A stretch of 32,000 nucleotides of DNA from Ktedonobacterales bacterium (GCA_030167145.1 CP126532.1:3750001-3782000); one strand, 5' to 3'. Counted from the first letter of the stretch, positions 27,083 to 32,000 are shown. The notes: generated from the letters alone by a model not told the origin. A program made the numbers and translations.

Positions 27083-27154
27083 CAGGAATGGCGTTGAATC
27101 TGGGAGGTGGAAGATGTCCACAGCAGTATCCGCACCGCACCCGTAGGAGGAAGC

Positions 27155-28144
27155 ATGAGCGACACGGCCACGTTGAGCCGGCTCTTCGCCAGTATTGATG
27201 CTGATCTGGACCTTGTGGAGCACACCTTTCAGCAGCAAGCCTCATCCGGCCTGGAGATCCTGAACTCCGCCGCCGCTTACGCTGTTGCTACGCCGGGCAA
27301 ACGCCTGCGCATGGCGCTGGCGTTGCTCTCTGGCCGGCTCATAGACTATCACCTCGACAAACTGCTGCCCCTCAGTGTCGCCCTTGAGATGGTGCATCTG
27401 GCTACTCTCGTCCACGACGACATCATTGACAACGCTACCACCCGCCGGGGCATGGCCACGGTTAATGCCCACTATGGCGACGGCGTCGCCATCTTGCTCG
27501 GCGACTACCTCTTTGCCAAAACCGCCGGTCTGATTGCTGACGTGGAAGACTTTCGCATTGATCGCCTCTTCTCGGAAACGGTTGCGCTGGTCTGCGAAGG
27601 CACGATCATCGAACTCCTCTCCGCCCACAAGCTCGACCTTTCCTTGGATACCTATCTTGAGCGCATCAGCCGCAAAACCGCCTGTCTGATGGCCGCGTGC
27701 TGTCGTGGCTCGGCTATTGTCTGCGGCGGAACCGACGCCCAGGTGGCGCTGCTGGAACAATATGGCCAGAATCTTGGCATGGCCTTCCAGATTCTCGACG
27801 ACATCCTCGACTACACCGCCAGCGAGGAGGCTATCGGCAAGCCCGCTGGCAACGACCTGCGCCAGGGTCTCGTGACCCTCCCGCTGATCTATGCGCTGCA
27901 AGCCCCCGACGCCAACGGCCACATGGAGCGCGTCAGCCGGGCGCTCAAAGCGCCGAACGCGCACGCCGACGACATCAACGGGATTGTGCAGTGGGTGAAG
28001 AGCGGACCCGGCATCGCTGAAGCATTCGCTCTCGCCGGACACTATGCGGCTCGCGCCCGCGCCGCGCTGGCGGAGTTTTCCGATTCGCCGGAGCGCGCCG
28101 TCCTTGAAGAGTTGGTGGATTTCGTCGTCGCCCGGAGCCGCTGA
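27155..28144 (+). CDS. Long-chain trans-polyprenyl diphosphate synthase (heptaprenyl/octaprenyl diphosphate synthase-like)
   Basis: I prefer the ATG at 27155, preceded by GTAGGAGGAAGC. First Asp-rich motif LVHDDIIDNATTRRG and second FQILDDILD. Confidence 0.92.
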   Translation: MSDTATLSRLFASIDADLDLVEHTFQQQASSGLEILNSAAAYAVATPGKRLRMALALLSGRLIDYHLDKLLPLSVALEMVHLATLVHDDIIDNATTRRGMATVNAHYGDGVAILLGDYLFAKTAGLIADVEDFRIDRLFSETVALVCEGTIIELLSAHKLDLSLDTYLERISRKTACLMAACCRGSAIVCGGTDAQVALLEQYGQNLGMAFQILDDILDYTASEEAIGKPAGNDLRQGLVTLPLIYALQAPDANGHMERVSRALKAPNAHADDINGIVQWVKSGPGIAEAFALAGHYAARARAALAEFSDSPERAVLEELVDFVVARSR

Positions 28145-28154
28145 GGGAGCATTC

Positions 28155-28916
28155 ATGACCACTACCCCATCGCCTGCGCCCCAGTTGCGCGCCCGCTTCG
28201 ACGCCGCCGGTGGCAAGCCGGTATATGTCCAACGCATGTTTGGCCGTATCGCCGGTGTGTATGATTTGATGAATCGCGTCATGACTGGCGGGCTGGATGG
28301 CCGTTGGCGCCGCTTCGCGGCCCAGCAAATCGCCCTTGGCCCTGGCCAGACTGGGCTGGACATCGGCACCGGCACCGGCGACCTCGCGATCACTCTCGCG
28401 CGTGTCAGCGCCCCCAGCGCGCGTGTGGTCGGCGTGGACTTCACTCCCGAAATGCTGGAACTGGGCCGCAAGAAGATCGGCAAACTCGGTCTTGCGAAGC
28501 GCGTTGAGCTCGTTCAGGGGGACGGCGAGCGCCTCGACTTTGCCGACAACTCGTTCGATGCCTGCTGCTCTGCGTTCGTGGTACGCAACCTCGCGGATAT
28601 CGAACACGGCTTCGGCGAAATGTTGCGCGTGGTGCGGCCGGGCGGGCGTGTCGTGTGCCTGGAAATGAGCCATCCCTACAATCCGCTCTTCAGCGCGGGC
28701 TTTCACCTCTACTTCGACCGCATTATCCCGCTGCTGGGTAAGCTCATTGGCCGCTCTGCTGAAGCGTACACCTACCTGCCGACCTCTGTCACTAGCTTCC
28801 CGGATGCTCCGGCGCTCAAGGGCATCATGGAGCGCGCGGGCTGGCGCGACGTGCGCTACTGGTATCGCATCGGCGGTGGCGTCGCCATCCATTATGGCGT
28901 CAAGCCTGCTCGCTGA
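28155..28916 (+). CDS. ubiE: Demethylmenaquinone/ubiquinone C-methyltransferase (UbiE/MenG family, class I SAM-dependent methyltransferase)
   Basis: I prefer the ATG at 28155, preceded by GAGGGAG. Motifs VQRMFGRIAGVYDLMNRVMTGGLDGRWRR, SAM motif GLDIGTGTGDLA, and FVVRNLADIE. Confidence 0.92.
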   Translation: MTTTPSPAPQLRARFDAAGGKPVYVQRMFGRIAGVYDLMNRVMTGGLDGRWRRFAAQQIALGPGQTGLDIGTGTGDLAITLARVSAPSARVVGVDFTPEMLELGRKKIGKLGLAKRVELVQGDGERLDFADNSFDACCSAFVVRNLADIEHGFGEMLRVVRPGGRVVCLEMSHPYNPLFSAGFHLYFDRIIPLLGKLIGRSAEAYTYLPTSVTSFPDAPALKGIMERAGWRDVRYWYRIGGGVAIHYGVKPAR

Positions 28917-28949: not shown

Positions 28950-31900
28950 TCACGATGGGTTACAGGTCGTGCCGCAGAACATCTGATTGCCACCGGTCAC
29001 TGCGATAATCGTCGAAGCAGCCACGGGCCGGTTCGCGGCGGGTGTGCCTGCCATCTCTGGCTGGAATCCCGCAATTACCAGCGACTTGACTGGCTCGCTG
29101 CCTGTCTGTGTGAAGGTGATGGCGCCACCCACGCCCAGGAAGGGATGATTGTGGTCGTATTGCAGCAGCCGCACCCGTATCTGTGTTGGCGTGGCATAGG
29201 CAATCTTGTTGCCGTTCATGTGGGTGTCGGGGGTCGCGGCTCGCACCAGTAATCGCACCGCATCGTAGCCGAGAATCGCCCCATCATCGGGCGCGGGCAG
29301 CCCAAAGTCATCTGTCGTGACGCCGTACTGCGCCTCGTAGTCATAGGGTAATGTCGGATGCACGACATCGGGCAAATTCAGCGCTGTCCATTCATTCAGG
29401 TCGGTTAGTTTCGTCACGTAGATGTTGCTGAGCAGAGCAGGATTCGTCCGCACGAATTGAGAGGTGTCGTCACCTGCTACCCCCAGCAATGACGGCGTAT
29501 ATGCCTGATGTGTCGTGATGATGTGGGGGGGTGGGGTGTACCACGTCTGTTGGTTGATCGCCTGCGAGAGCGACAACGCCTCGCTATCGCAGTTCTCGTT
29601 GCCGCACGCCAGGAAGATTAGACTAGCCCCCTGGCTCTGCGCCTGCCCGACAATCTGCGAGAAGCGAGATGTATCAGTGAAAGTGGTTGTTTGCGCGGTC
29701 ACGTTTGGATAACTGGCGAGACTCTGGAGAAAGCTGGTCGTTTCCGCAGCGCTTACATCATCATTCGCCTTCTTCAGGACCAGCACATGCTGGCCATTCA
29801 ACTGGGTCGCCACCGCGGTAGCAAGTTCTGCTGCTTGCTGTGAATCCGATGGCACCAGAGGAAAGAAGTTCGCATGCCCACCGAGGTTATCCTGGGTTGC
29901 GGTCGGCGAGACAATCGCCAGCCCCGAAGGGGCAAGCGCTGAGATGGCGAGGCGTGTCTCGGCGGATTCCGGCCAACCGACGATGCCGATCAGGTGTTGC
30001 GCGTTGCCAAGCTGAATCTCCTGCAGCAAGACGTTGGAGGCCAGGGTTGCGCCATCATCGGTCGCGCCAGAGTTGAGCACCAGCACGCGCAACTGCATGT
30101 GCCCTGGCAGCGGGTTCTCCTCGTTGATGCGCTGCTGCGCCAGGAATACGCCTTGCAGCATGTCGTGCGCCTCATCGGCATCGCCGTAAGAGACTGCCGC
30201 CACTACGGTTACATAGGGGTCTTTGGCCAGCAATATCCGCACATCCTCGGTATAGATGGCCGCTTCGGCGTCCGTTTGCACGAGCGCCATCGCGCTCTTG
30301 AATGACTGATATGCCGTGTGGAGATCACCTGTCGCCAGCGCCTGCGCGCCTTTCTGCTTCAGCGCGTTATTCGCCAGGCCCGTATCGAAGATATATTCGC
30401 CGCCACTCAGGCCGATGCCCTTATCCTGGTAGAGCTGGGCGATGCCGTTTGGCGTCGGCGTTGGCCCAATGGCCGCGCCGGCATTGGTATGGGGCAGAGC
30501 GGCATAGAGCACGCCGCCGCCCACCAGCACGATCAGCGCGACAATCGCCGTGATGAGCACCAATGGATTTTGAAGTGGCCGCTGGCGCGCCAGGACTAGT
30601 CGCCCACGCGCGTCACGCACGGGGGCCAGTCGCGCCGCACGCTCATCATCATCGAAGAGCAGATCTTCGGTCACATGAGTGAGGCGCTTATGCGAGAGGT
30701 CTTCGAGGGCCGTGCGCATCTCTTGCGCCGTTTGGAAGCGCTGTGTCGAAGACAGGCGCAGACCGCGCCCAATCAGTTCTTCAAGCTCTAGTGAGACGTT
30801 CGGATTCAGGTGGCGGGCTGGGGGGTGCATCGCGTTGGCGCGTGGCGCGGGCGCTGTGCCTGTGACCATGTGATGCAGCACCGCGCAGAGCGCATAGAGG
30901 TCCGAGCGCGTATTGGCCTGTCCGCGTGCCTGCTCCGGCGCGGCATAGCCCAGCGCGCCGCCTGCCATGCCATGCTCCACGCGCCCTTCGGGGTAGAGCA
31001 GGAGCATGGGCGAGAATCCCACCAGCACTACCTGGCCGCTCGGCCGCAACAGAATGTTGGCGGGGCAGATATTGCCGTGTAAGAAGGGAGGCCGCTGGTG
31101 CTCAAAGACATCGAGCACGTCCAGCAATTGCAGCGTATAGGCGATGGCTTGCTTTTCATCCAGCGCCCCTCTGACGCGCTGCAAACGGTCGAGCAGGAAC
31201 TCGCCCGATGGCAACTCATAGACGAGGAAGTGGCGGCCCTGCTCGCCAAAAGCGTCTAGCAGGCGCGGAATGCAGTGCGACTCGGCGATGTCTTGCACAT
31301 GCCGCGCGACATTCCGCCGCCACTGCTCCGCATCCACGGGCCGTGTTCCCATGGGGAAGCTCAATTCCTGCACCAACACGCGCTCACTGCCCAGTTCCTG
31401 GTCGGTGGCGATCAGCAAGGGTGGTTCGTTGCCCTGCGAATGAAAGGCGTCGGCAGCATGCAGACGTTGCAGAATGTGATAGCGGCCGCCCTTGAGCGAC
31501 GTGCCTGGCAGCAGCGCGCGCACAACCGCGCCGCCCAGCGCACCCGGCACTGCTGGCAGCCCAGCGCCATCGGCGGGGGCCATGGGCGCCATGCCTCCAT
31601 AGGCGCTGCCCATCGGCTGCATGGGTGGCTGCATGGGCGATATTGGTGGCTGCATTGGCATCATCGGCGACATGGACATATCGGGCATTGACCATTGTCC
31701 ACCGGACGGCCCGCTGAAGCCGTCTAGCGCGGGGCCATAGCTCGCTGGGGCGTCCGGCTGGCTCGACAGATCGGGGCGCGCGCCGCGCCGCCCGCCCGGC
31801 CAGCGCGGCTGAATGCCGTTGGGCAGCGCTTCGGGTCCGGAATATGATGGCGCGGATGGCGGCGCGGATGGCGAGGGGGTGGGCGCTTGTGGTGGGAGTT

Positions 31901-31988
31901 GCGCGGATGGCGGGCCGCCAAAGCGGGGCAGCGGACCTGGCGCACCGCCTTGCAAAGCGTTCGTGAGCCAGGGGGGTCGTTCGCCCAT
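28950..31988 (-). CDS. Single-pass membrane receptor: Pro/Met-rich N-terminal region, degenerate Ser/Thr-kinase-like (pseudokinase) domain, TM helix, and an extracytoplasmic type-1 periplasmic-binding-protein-like domain
   Basis: 1012 aa. Kinase-fold landmarks are present (GYAAPEQARG, SDLYALCAVLHHMVTG), but the catalytic motifs are replaced: there is no GxGxxG loop, VAIK reads VLVQ, HRD reads HGN (FLHGNICPANILL) and DFG reads GFS. TM segment LVLITAIVALIVLVGGGVLYA. The ectodomain resembles Leu/Ile/Val-binding-type PBPs (LRVLVLNSGATDDG...IGIVGWPESAETR...LAIVSPTAT). No in-frame stop lies between 31988 and the window end, so the N-terminus may extend further. Confidence 0.85.
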   Translation of the reverse strand: MGERPPWLTNALQGGAPGPLPRFGGPPSAQLPPQAPTPSPSAPPSAPSYSGPEALPNGIQPRWPGGRRGARPDLSSQPDAPASYGPALDGFSGPSGGQWSMPDMSMSPMMPMQPPISPMQPPMQPMGSAYGGMAPMAPADGAGLPAVPGALGGAVVRALLPGTSLKGGRYHILQRLHAADAFHSQGNEPPLLIATDQELGSERVLVQELSFPMGTRPVDAEQWRRNVARHVQDIAESHCIPRLLDAFGEQGRHFLVYELPSGEFLLDRLQRVRGALDEKQAIAYTLQLLDVLDVFEHQRPPFLHGNICPANILLRPSGQVVLVGFSPMLLLYPEGRVEHGMAGGALGYAAPEQARGQANTRSDLYALCAVLHHMVTGTAPAPRANAMHPPARHLNPNVSLELEELIGRGLRLSSTQRFQTAQEMRTALEDLSHKRLTHVTEDLLFDDDERAARLAPVRDARGRLVLARQRPLQNPLVLITAIVALIVLVGGGVLYAALPHTNAGAAIGPTPTPNGIAQLYQDKGIGLSGGEYIFDTGLANNALKQKGAQALATGDLHTAYQSFKSAMALVQTDAEAAIYTEDVRILLAKDPYVTVVAAVSYGDADEAHDMLQGVFLAQQRINEENPLPGHMQLRVLVLNSGATDDGATLASNVLLQEIQLGNAQHLIGIVGWPESAETRLAISALAPSGLAIVSPTATQDNLGGHANFFPLVPSDSQQAAELATAVATQLNGQHVLVLKKANDDVSAAETTSFLQSLASYPNVTAQTTTFTDTSRFSQIVGQAQSQGASLIFLACGNENCDSEALSLSQAINQQTWYTPPPHIITTHQAYTPSLLGVAGDDTSQFVRTNPALLSNIYVTKLTDLNEWTALNLPDVVHPTLPYDYEAQYGVTTDDFGLPAPDDGAILGYDAVRLLVRAATPDTHMNGNKIAYATPTQIRVRLLQYDHNHPFLGVGGAITFTQTGSEPVKSLVIAGFQPEMAGTPAANRPVAASTIIAVTGGNQMFCGTTCNPS

Positions 31989-32000
31989 GTCGTTGCCAGC

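Follow-up and report, generated by a model that had tools for sequence, protein, structure and literature searches.

How might a bacterial receptor signal across the membrane once its kinase domain has lost the residues of catalysis? The question is raised by the end of a 32,000-nucleotide stretch of DNA from a Ktedonobacterales bacterium (GCA_030167145.1, CP126532.1:3750001-3782000; the window below, with positions counted from its first nucleotide). Here a gene on the minus strand had been proposed, in an earlier reading of the DNA (the original prediction), to encode a receptor that combines a catalytically degenerate kinase domain with an ectodomain of the periplasmic binding protein (PBP) type and that signals by scaffolding or allostery rather than by phosphotransfer. 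In the computational analysis described here this remained the best-supported reading, the evidence being a conserved loss of the catalytic residues together with a binding-protein ectodomain, from which the mechanism is inferred. We consider it likely that the gene encodes a single-pass receptor pseudokinase (N-terminus inside, C-terminus outside) of one Ktedonobacterales family, acting as a ligand-gated, non-catalytic scaffold or allosteric partner.

28950..32000, minus strand: receptor pseudokinase gene, the part inside the window (1012 codons and a stop; the gene itself begins outside the window)

The open reading frame (ORF) at 28950..31988 on the minus strand gives 1012 residues within the window, which are numbered accordingly below, and its codon coordinates were verified by translation. 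The kinase portion comprises the following elements.

30669..31511, minus strand: pseudokinase domain with a complete kinase fold of two lobes, residues 160-440 (Pfam, alignments to StkP and PknB, AlphaFold2, Foldseek)
31362..31379, minus strand: β3 strand VLVQEL, with Q207 for the VAIK lysine and L205 for the VAIK alanine (alignment, translation)
31071..31079, minus strand: HGN (H304, G305, N306) for HRD (alignment, translation)
31011..31019, minus strand: GFS (G324, F325, S326) for DFG (alignment, translation)
30933..30941, minus strand: retained APE motif, followed by a conserved QxRG (homologue alignment)

The kinase fold was recognised by Pfam, with a match to Pkinase (PF00069) over residues 237-419 that scored 44.5 bits against a cut-off of 31.7 and left the N-lobe outside the profile. 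A structure predicted by AlphaFold2 from an alignment of 103 sequences had a mean predicted local distance difference test score (pLDDT) of 81.9; residues 160-440 exceeded 90 and held every expected element of the fold (β1-β5, αC, αE, αF and αG-αI). Foldseek matched this domain to Staphylococcus aureus PknB/Stk1 with TM-scores of 0.67-0.71, and the closest solved relatives were StkP, S. aureus PknB/Stk1 and Mycobacterium tuberculosis PknB, PknA and PknE.

The residue register was taken from a phmmer alignment to StkP (9ru3; E 3e-16). Here VAVK of StkP aligns with VLVQ of the receptor, placing Q207 at the lysine and L205 at the preceding alanine; HRDLKPQN aligns with HGNICPAN, DFG with GFS and SPEQARG with APEQARG. 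The αC glutamate of StkP falls on N226, and at this position (N226/V227) the homologues have no conserved acidic residue. The glycine loop GxGxxG is missing, and a longer loop, LHAADAFHSQGNEPP, occupies its place. Every motif that the original prediction had quoted was found where it had been placed, and alignment to Pkinase and other profiles upheld the register that had been read by eye, with no Lys/Asp/Asp at the catalytic positions. Three independent alignments (Pfam, phmmer against four solved kinases, and a hidden Markov model that included canonical paralogues) agreed on this register. The same alignment columns hold GxGxxG, K, [HFYM]RD and D[FL]G in the ~26 canonical paralogues encoded by the same genome.

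A protein search recovered ~105 full-length homologues with 37-57% identity, of which 103 were used for alignment counts. Beyond them the score fell sharply, from 416 to 93 bits, and all homologues with a source name came from Ktedonobacterales. Conservation in orthologues had been proposed as a check on the substitutions, and in ~100 of these they proved invariant or nearly so. Q207, H304, G305 and G324, which replace catalytic residues, were present in 103/103 sequences, as were the fold-holding residues P351, E352, Q353, R355, D363 and R411 (among them the APE motif, the αF aspartate and the αH-αI arginine). L205, in place of the VAIK alanine, was found in 102/103; S326, in place of the DFG glycine, in 101/103; and N306, in place of the HRD aspartate, in 97/103. 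All five features of a competent Hanks-type kinase (glycine loop, β3 lysine, αC glutamate, HRD aspartate and DFG aspartate) are absent, in the receptor and in 97-103 of the 103 homologues. The VAIK lysine, HRD aspartate and DFG aspartate, the residues whose loss defines a pseudokinase at the sequence level, are all gone, and the loss has been kept in orthologues.

The rest of the fold is well preserved. H304 and D363, both spine residues, are retained, along with a hydrophobic residue at 325. The activation loop is full-length and conserved in sequence, with alanine or glycine at the positions of the PknB phospho-threonines, which is consistent with the lost HRD arginine. On the N-lobe, R169 (101/101), D245 (99/103) and L199 (aliphatic or aromatic in 93/103) are conserved; we take these to be the equivalents of R10, D76 and L33, the residues of the PknB back-to-back dimer.

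Two ways of discounting the substitutions were considered together: that the register misleads and the kinase is active with displaced residues, or that the gene is a functionless, decaying relic. The former has in its favour only a general precedent, the WNK-type migration of residues, and is opposed by the agreement of the three alignments; the latter can point only to genera of the taxonomic family in which the gene was not found. Frames are intact and free of stops in 26 genomes, site-specific conservation is strong across both the kinase and the sensor domains in ~100 orthologues, and purifying selection had already been seen. We give these two possibilities almost no weight. Judged by its conservation, the receptor pseudokinase family is genuine and under selection, and the kinase fold is predicted to be unable to transfer phosphate. 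ATP binding has presumably been lost as well: a bulky leucine (L205) replaces the VAIK alanine and therefore probably fills the adenine pocket. Bulky residues also fill the ATP pocket of the mycobacterial pseudokinase MviN (PMC12599244).

The second half of the receptor faces the outside and is laid out as follows.

30570..30668, minus strand: conserved cytoplasmic juxtamembrane segment, residues 441-473 (homologue alignment)
30498..30569, minus strand: single transmembrane helix, residues 474-497 (AlphaFold2 helix 475-496; sequence read directly)
30219..30452, minus strand: helical, TPR-like extracytoplasmic subdomain, residues 513-590 (AlphaFold2 helices 515-588, pLDDT above 90)
28953..30218, minus strand: type-I PBP or Venus-flytrap ectodomain, residues 591-1012 (Pfam, Foldseek, alignment to 4q6b and 4mlc, conservation)

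Arginines lie on the N-terminal side of the transmembrane helix, which places the kinase fold in the cytoplasm and the C-terminal half outside the cell. The juxtamembrane segment carries the family motif LxPVRDARGRLVLPRxRxxQ(NP), in which R458 was invariant (103/103) and D459, G462, P467 and Q473 were each conserved in at least 90% of sequences; T437, just ahead of the segment, was present in 95/103. The ectodomain had been predicted to resemble a periplasmic binding protein of the amino-acid type, and it indeed has a LivJ/LivK-like type-I fold by both Pfam and Foldseek. Peripla_BP_6 matched residues 609-796 (38.3 bits, cut-off 31.7) and ANF_receptor residues 612-973 (34.2 bits, cut-off 25.4), and AlphaFold2 modelled residues 515-1005 with pLDDT above 90. 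The best Foldseek matches were LivK, LivJ and leucine-binding substrate-binding proteins (TM-scores 0.75-0.82), and flytraps of class-C G-protein-coupled receptors were matched too. When aligned to the leucine-bound structures 4q6b and 4mlc, S675 and T698 fall at the equivalents of LivJ Ser79 and Thr102. Within the family position 675 is serine in 75 members, threonine in 11-12 and alanine in 13, and position 698 is threonine in 38 and serine in 31 (69/103 together), aspartate in 15 and asparagine in 12. The ligand is probably small and amino-acid-like.

Two pairs of cysteines were observed in the extracytoplasmic part, and both probably form disulfides. The C-terminal pair, FCGxxC (C1005 and C1009; residues 1005-1012, window 28953-28976), is found in 101/103 homologues; the second (C795 and C800; residues 795-800) lies within an insertion present in ~20% of homologues. 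A C-terminal Pfam match to Methanobactin (E 0.26) was dismissed as chance, being produced by the C1005/C1009 pair.

At its other end the receptor extends past the window.

31527..32000, minus strand: disordered linker rich in Pro, Gly, Ala, Ser and Met, residues 1-154 (AlphaFold2 pLDDT below 50; composition)

The original prediction had described the N-terminus as a proline- and methionine-rich region of about 150 residues. Its composition was borne out (residues 1-154 are 24% Pro and 8% Met) and AlphaFold2 predicts it to be disordered, but the protein is longer than had been thought and begins with a zinc ribbon. The frame stays open at the window end, and the host genome, a single contig of 5.07 Mb, adds 66-68 upstream codons to an ATG at ~32186 or a GTG at ~32192 (window coordinates, both past the window end). 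The full protein has ~1078-1080 residues, the longest ORF encoding 1080 and the stop-to-stop frame 1091. Beyond the window end the linker, ~200 residues in all, leads to short conserved motifs (WRE.., ERPxWL) and then to the zinc ribbon. The upstream extension, MRMLCPRCGRQNDRYASRCAQCG, forms this CxxC...CxxC ribbon (MLCPRCG...CAQCG), for which the Pfam matches Zn_Ribbon_1 and DZR were weak and under the cut-off. The ribbon, M[QL]CPRCGxxN...CxxCGL, opens 42 of 55 homologues, a count confined to those with gene calls reaching that far. The public gene call for the receptor, P0002, starts at an internal methionine and comprises 890 residues, so that the ribbon and the greater part of the linker are left out; this and many other homologue entries of 860-900 residues look like products of mis-called starts.

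The receptor gene looks monocistronic, and its neighbours on the two sides differ in how closely they follow it.

27107..28916, plus strand: convergent neighbours, a polyprenyl synthase and a UbiE/MenG-type methyltransferase (Pfam; context only)

The original prediction had placed the receptor next to a glycan and quinone locus. The part of this claim that stood is synteny with the downstream UbiE and polyprenyl synthase genes, which are kept in 6/10 orthologous loci; they run convergently and share no operon with the receptor, so that a joint operon with the quinone genes was rejected. The longest UbiE/MenG ORF (28044-28916, plus strand) shares ~100 nucleotides with the 3' end of the polyprenyl synthase ORF (27107-28144, plus strand), and its real start is probably the internal methionine at MTTTPSPAP.

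Upstream, just past the window end and head-to-head with the receptor gene, lies a gene for a CPBP/Rce1-like protease of 289 residues (L001 5337 onward, plus strand; genome C1:3782789-3783655), in which the EExxxR and FxxxH motifs are retained. It was kept in 12/12 receptor-family loci examined and, by its coordinates, adjoined the receptor gene in divergent orientation in 23 of 26 genomes from 11 genera, while other neighbours changed; the three exceptions are contig ends, or cases in which the match was not found or the genome is incomplete. Two further genes nearby were considered as parts of the system and set aside. A 92-residue RHH-like ORF (L001 5062-5340, plus strand; C1:3782514-3782792), divergent from the receptor gene and overlapping the CPBP start by ATGA, was seen in this genome only and not at 20 other loci checked. 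An M50 (site-2 protease) gene stands beside the CPBP gene in one lineage (L013 5642-6910) and is not conserved in other loci.

A search for a partner active kinase around the receptor gene was negative: more than 170 kb separate it from the nearest other kinase gene. Elsewhere the genome encodes ~30 proteins with kinase domains, ~26 of them canonical, and has 15 FHA-domain matches, none near the receptor gene; no second copy of the ectodomain was found in it. Other degenerate kinase domains in the genome lie at C1:1135939-1139220 (minus strand), 4813011-4815518 (plus strand) and 1697214-1699457 (minus strand). One of the three is an open frame of 1094 residues and contains two kinase domains, with R / HLG / DFA at the β3, HRD and DFG positions of the second; the other two proteins read K / HGN / DFG and R / HGN / DVG.

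The receptor is ordered, from its cytoplasmic end, as zinc ribbon, proline-rich linker, kinase fold, juxtamembrane motif, transmembrane helix, helical subdomain and LivJ/ANF-type flytrap. According to the model that we favour, a small, probably amino-acid-like ligand would close the flytrap, and closure would be relayed through the transmembrane helix and the juxtamembrane motif to the pseudokinase domain, which would then serve as a ligand-gated interaction module, a scaffold or allosteric partner rather than an enzyme. Three kinds of partner can be put forward, as candidates only. One of the ~26 canonical Hanks-type kinases could dock through the PknB-type N-lobe dimer surface (R169, L199, D245). 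Alternatively, FHA proteins might dock on a trans-phosphorylated threonine such as T437, in the manner of MviN and FhaA. Finally, the head-to-head CPBP/Rce1-like protein might be the partner, by analogy with the tuning of WalK and CovS by Abi/CPBP proteins.

Several observations weigh against this reading. Firstly, position 698 of the ectodomain is aspartate or asparagine in 27/103 members. Secondly, the polar residues of the former active site (Q207, H304, N306, N311 and S326) are invariant or nearly so, and a pocket lined in this way could still be binding something. It is conceivable that the domain is not inert at all and that these residues make up a new active or allosteric site, either for repurposed binding of a nucleotide or small molecule (as in STRADα, the ActPs2 type or the WNK type) or for another catalysis, such as the AMPylation and glutamylation of SelO and SidJ. 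Conservation of these polar residues beyond structural need would fit such a function. However, the domain lacks a glycine loop, neither its catalytic loop nor its DFG position offers an acidic residue to bind metal, and the leucine that should fill the adenine pocket is nearly universal. A compensating lysine was not found either: the homologue alignment shows none conserved in β2, and K166 precedes β1 in an ordinary LxGRY lead-in. SelO and SidJ themselves retain metal-binding acidic residues. We therefore regard a repurposed domain as unlikely, even though some pseudokinases do retain non-canonical ligand binding (PMC12599244).

The remaining points concern the CPBP gene. Its orthologue was present in 11/13 genomes of one genus, g7 (for example at L050, L051 and L054), in which the receptor was found in 0/13, and the sister subfamilies of the receptor lack a CPBP gene within 6 kb (8 loci examined). 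Because the CPBP gene persists where the receptor was not found, the pairing is not obligatory for the protease, and it may be inherited synteny; an obligate partnership is weakened accordingly, and the CPBP link is a lead rather than a demonstrated dependency.

A stronger version of this link would make the receptor mainly a substrate or regulator of the protease. Ligand binding would expose the juxtamembrane or transmembrane segment to cleavage, thereby freeing the zinc ribbon, linker and pseudokinase into the cytoplasm in the style of an anti-sigma factor. Such a role is suggested by the pairing across 11 genera while other neighbours change, by the high conservation of the juxtamembrane motif, by an N-terminal zinc ribbon on a single-pass protein with its N-terminus inside, by the retained EExxxR and FxxxH motifs and by the M50 gene that adjoins the CPBP gene at one orthologous locus. 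It is countered by the persistence of the protease gene where the receptor was not found, by the lack of conservation of the M50 gene and by the absence of a sigma-factor or DNA-binding partner nearby, the RHH-like ORF being confined to this genome. Moreover, known Abi/CPBP partners of sensor kinases are reported to work without proteolysis (PMC5854430 and PMC13692083). Regulated cleavage thus appears improbable, if slightly less so than a repurposed active site, and we retain ligand-gated, non-catalytic signalling as the preferred reading.

How did such a receptor arise? An exhaustive search of representatives returned 205 clusters at E <1e-30, and classification of their kinase domains showed that four degenerate types have H-G at the HRD position. 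They are given here by their β3, HRD and DFG residues, followed for three of them by the family (f1-f3) in which they were found.

Q / HGN / GxS: the receptor's own type, with the PBP ectodomain (f1)
R / HGA / xHx: second type, with the PBP ectodomain (f3)
L or V / HGx / xxW: third type, with the PBP ectodomain (f2)
C / HGL / xNF: fourth type, without the PBP ectodomain

Each type formed a clade, and all four together were separated by a single split that enclosed no active kinase. Support for this split was 99 by the Shimodaira-Hasegawa-like approximate likelihood ratio test (SH-aLRT) with 165 domains, and ultrafast bootstrap 100 / SH-aLRT 98 under a site-heterogeneous model (LG+C20 with posterior mean site frequencies) with 76 domains. 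Canonically active kinases with the same type of ectodomain were also present (14 representatives), and these share the signature residues of the receptor ectodomain, including the equivalents of LivJ Ser79 and Thr102. The most economical account is that a binding-protein receptor kinase was inactivated once, long ago, and then diversified. Members of the fourth type (P0188, P0200, P0204, P0216 and P0228-P0231, all from other genomes) have 370-740 residues and carry a segment RQEWLSGVYEA where the glycine loop would be.

The receptor family itself occurs as one copy per genome, in 25/44 genomes of its taxonomic family; in genus g7 it was found in none of 13 genomes. In one genome (G141) a 688-residue open frame adjoining the CPBP gene (L052 4192-6255) has the pseudokinase domain only, without the ectodomain, and may be a truncated or decaying copy. 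Relatives are present throughout the Ktedonobacterales, and outside the order no match at E ≤1e-45 was found in ~268 other Chloroflexota genomes (301 searched altogether). That search used a stricter first look, making its count a floor, and full-length relatives score far below E 1e-45.

These results invite a broader conjecture, which we put forward as speculative and probably too strong in its full form: that a whole set of ligand-gated receptor pseudokinases has radiated within the Ktedonobacterales (the H-G clade, which comprises four subfamilies and as many as five copies in one genome), going back to a single ancient loss of activity in a receptor kinase of the binding-protein type, and that the receptor subfamily signals through the head-to-head CPBP intramembrane protease. 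If true, this would be an undescribed route across the bacterial membrane, made up of a sensor, a dead kinase and a membrane protease and without a phosphotransfer step. Pseudokinases as a kind are already known; the family and its architecture appear to be new, and the clade is unnamed and restricted to the Ktedonobacterales. Bacterial pseudokinases are an acknowledged blind spot, and among the only seven families recognised in a 2025 atlas and review almost none has a known function or input signal. The present family offers a recognisable small-molecule sensor, strictly conserved replacement residues, active sister receptors for comparison, a single copy per genome and a conserved candidate partner gene. 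It thus lends itself to the study of how signals can cross a bacterial membrane by way of a dead kinase domain, and it offers bacteria a counterpart of the eukaryotic receptors in which an ANF-type ectodomain is joined to a kinase-homology domain. Its hosts, mycelium-forming Chloroflexota from the environment, have large repertoires of kinases, and the interest lies in the evolution of signalling rather than in medicine.

The receptor was then set against known families and systems. The 2025 atlas and review (PMC12599244; bioRxiv 10.1101/2025.01.12.632604) recognise seven bacterial pseudokinase families (ActPs1, ActPs2, ActPs3, GLW, CP1, DYD and DLHK) and report that pseudokinases with all motifs lost are fairly common in prokaryotes. 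The hallmarks described (PMC12599244) are a G-helix deletion or a PQQ domain for ActPs1; a β3 arginine, DFG deletion and large insertions for ActPs2; an activation-loop deletion for ActPs3; GLW for HRD, with LLLL/W in β3, for GLW; and a cytosolic location with a COG3899 domain for CP1. With its αG helix, full activation loop, Q/HGN/GxS signature, transmembrane helix and PBP ectodomain, the receptor fits none of the five families whose hallmarks were compared. Ktedonobacteria and a binding-protein ectodomain go unmentioned in both papers, the sole occurrence of 'Chloroflex' being in connection with the CCM1 family.

Among active kinases, PknB, StkP and Stk1 (9ru3, 4eqm, 1mru) gave the best sequence and structure matches to the receptor kinase fold. 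In common with it they have a kinase domain followed by a transmembrane helix and a sensor outside the cytoplasm, as well as a P+1 loop of the SPEQARG type and the residues of the N-lobe dimer surface; they differ in being active (GxGxxG, K, E, HRD and DFG) and in having activation-loop threonines and a PASTA-repeat sensor. The receptor has no PASTA repeats and scored 73.8 bits against a cut-off of 450 for the PknB/Stk1 PASTA kinase model (NCBIfam NF033483, PknB_PASTA_kin); kinase matches to the NCBIfam families PknB_PASTA, LanL, MAD6 and others were all below threshold, and these assignments were rejected. The uncharacterised active PBP-type receptor kinases of Ktedonobacterales (for example P0145, P0148, P0152 and P0170) have the same layout, an ectodomain that is homologous (E 1e-60 to 1e-92 against the ectodomain profile of the receptor family) and a kinase domain 35-40% identical to that of the receptor. 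In contrast to the receptor they keep GxGxxG, K, HRD and DFG and lie outside the H-G clade, and none is encoded in this genome.

Parts of the proposed system have counterparts elsewhere. In the mycobacterial GlnH-GlnX-PknG pathway (PMC6069109), an extracytoplasmic binding protein likewise senses amino acids and feeds into Hanks-type kinase and FHA signalling; there, however, the binding protein, membrane relay and active kinase are three proteins, whereas the receptor fuses the binding domain to a dead kinase. Abi/CPBP proteins are described as tuning sensor kinases in the pairs SpdC-WalK and Abx1/CflP-CovS (PMC5854430, PMC13692083), which resemble the present locus in pairing a CPBP-family membrane protein with a kinase-type membrane sensor. 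They differ in that their partners are histidine kinases, while the pairing with the receptor is suggested only by the conserved head-to-head gene order.

In function, the nearest analogue is MviN, a pseudokinase of M. tuberculosis (MurJ, Rv3910; ActPs3). It too is a membrane protein with an intracellular kinase fold in which the three motifs are degraded, and beyond a membrane-spanning segment it has a ligand-binding domain outside the cytoplasm (PMC12599244). MviN acts as a scaffold, being phosphorylated by PknB and then recruiting FhaA, and dimerises back-to-back through its N-lobe (PMC12599244). It differs in its actinobacterial lineage, in its deleted activation loop (full-length and conserved in the receptor), in its carbohydrate-binding ectodomain and flippase fusion, and in being without the zinc ribbon and proline-rich linker of the receptor.

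The closest architectural analogue lies outside bacteria, in the natriuretic-peptide receptors, and the likeness is almost certainly convergent. In these receptor guanylyl cyclases an ANF ectodomain is followed by a transmembrane helix, a dead kinase-homology domain that relays ligand binding allosterically, and the cyclase. No guanylyl cyclase domain was found in the Ktedonobacterales receptor by Pfam or AlphaFold2. The natriuretic-peptide receptors are eukaryotic, carry the ectodomain at the N-terminus and so have the reverse topology, and use guanylyl cyclase as their output; what they have in common with the receptor described here, which matches ANF_receptor in Pfam, is the union of an ANF/LivJ-type flytrap and a dead kinase domain in a single-pass protein.

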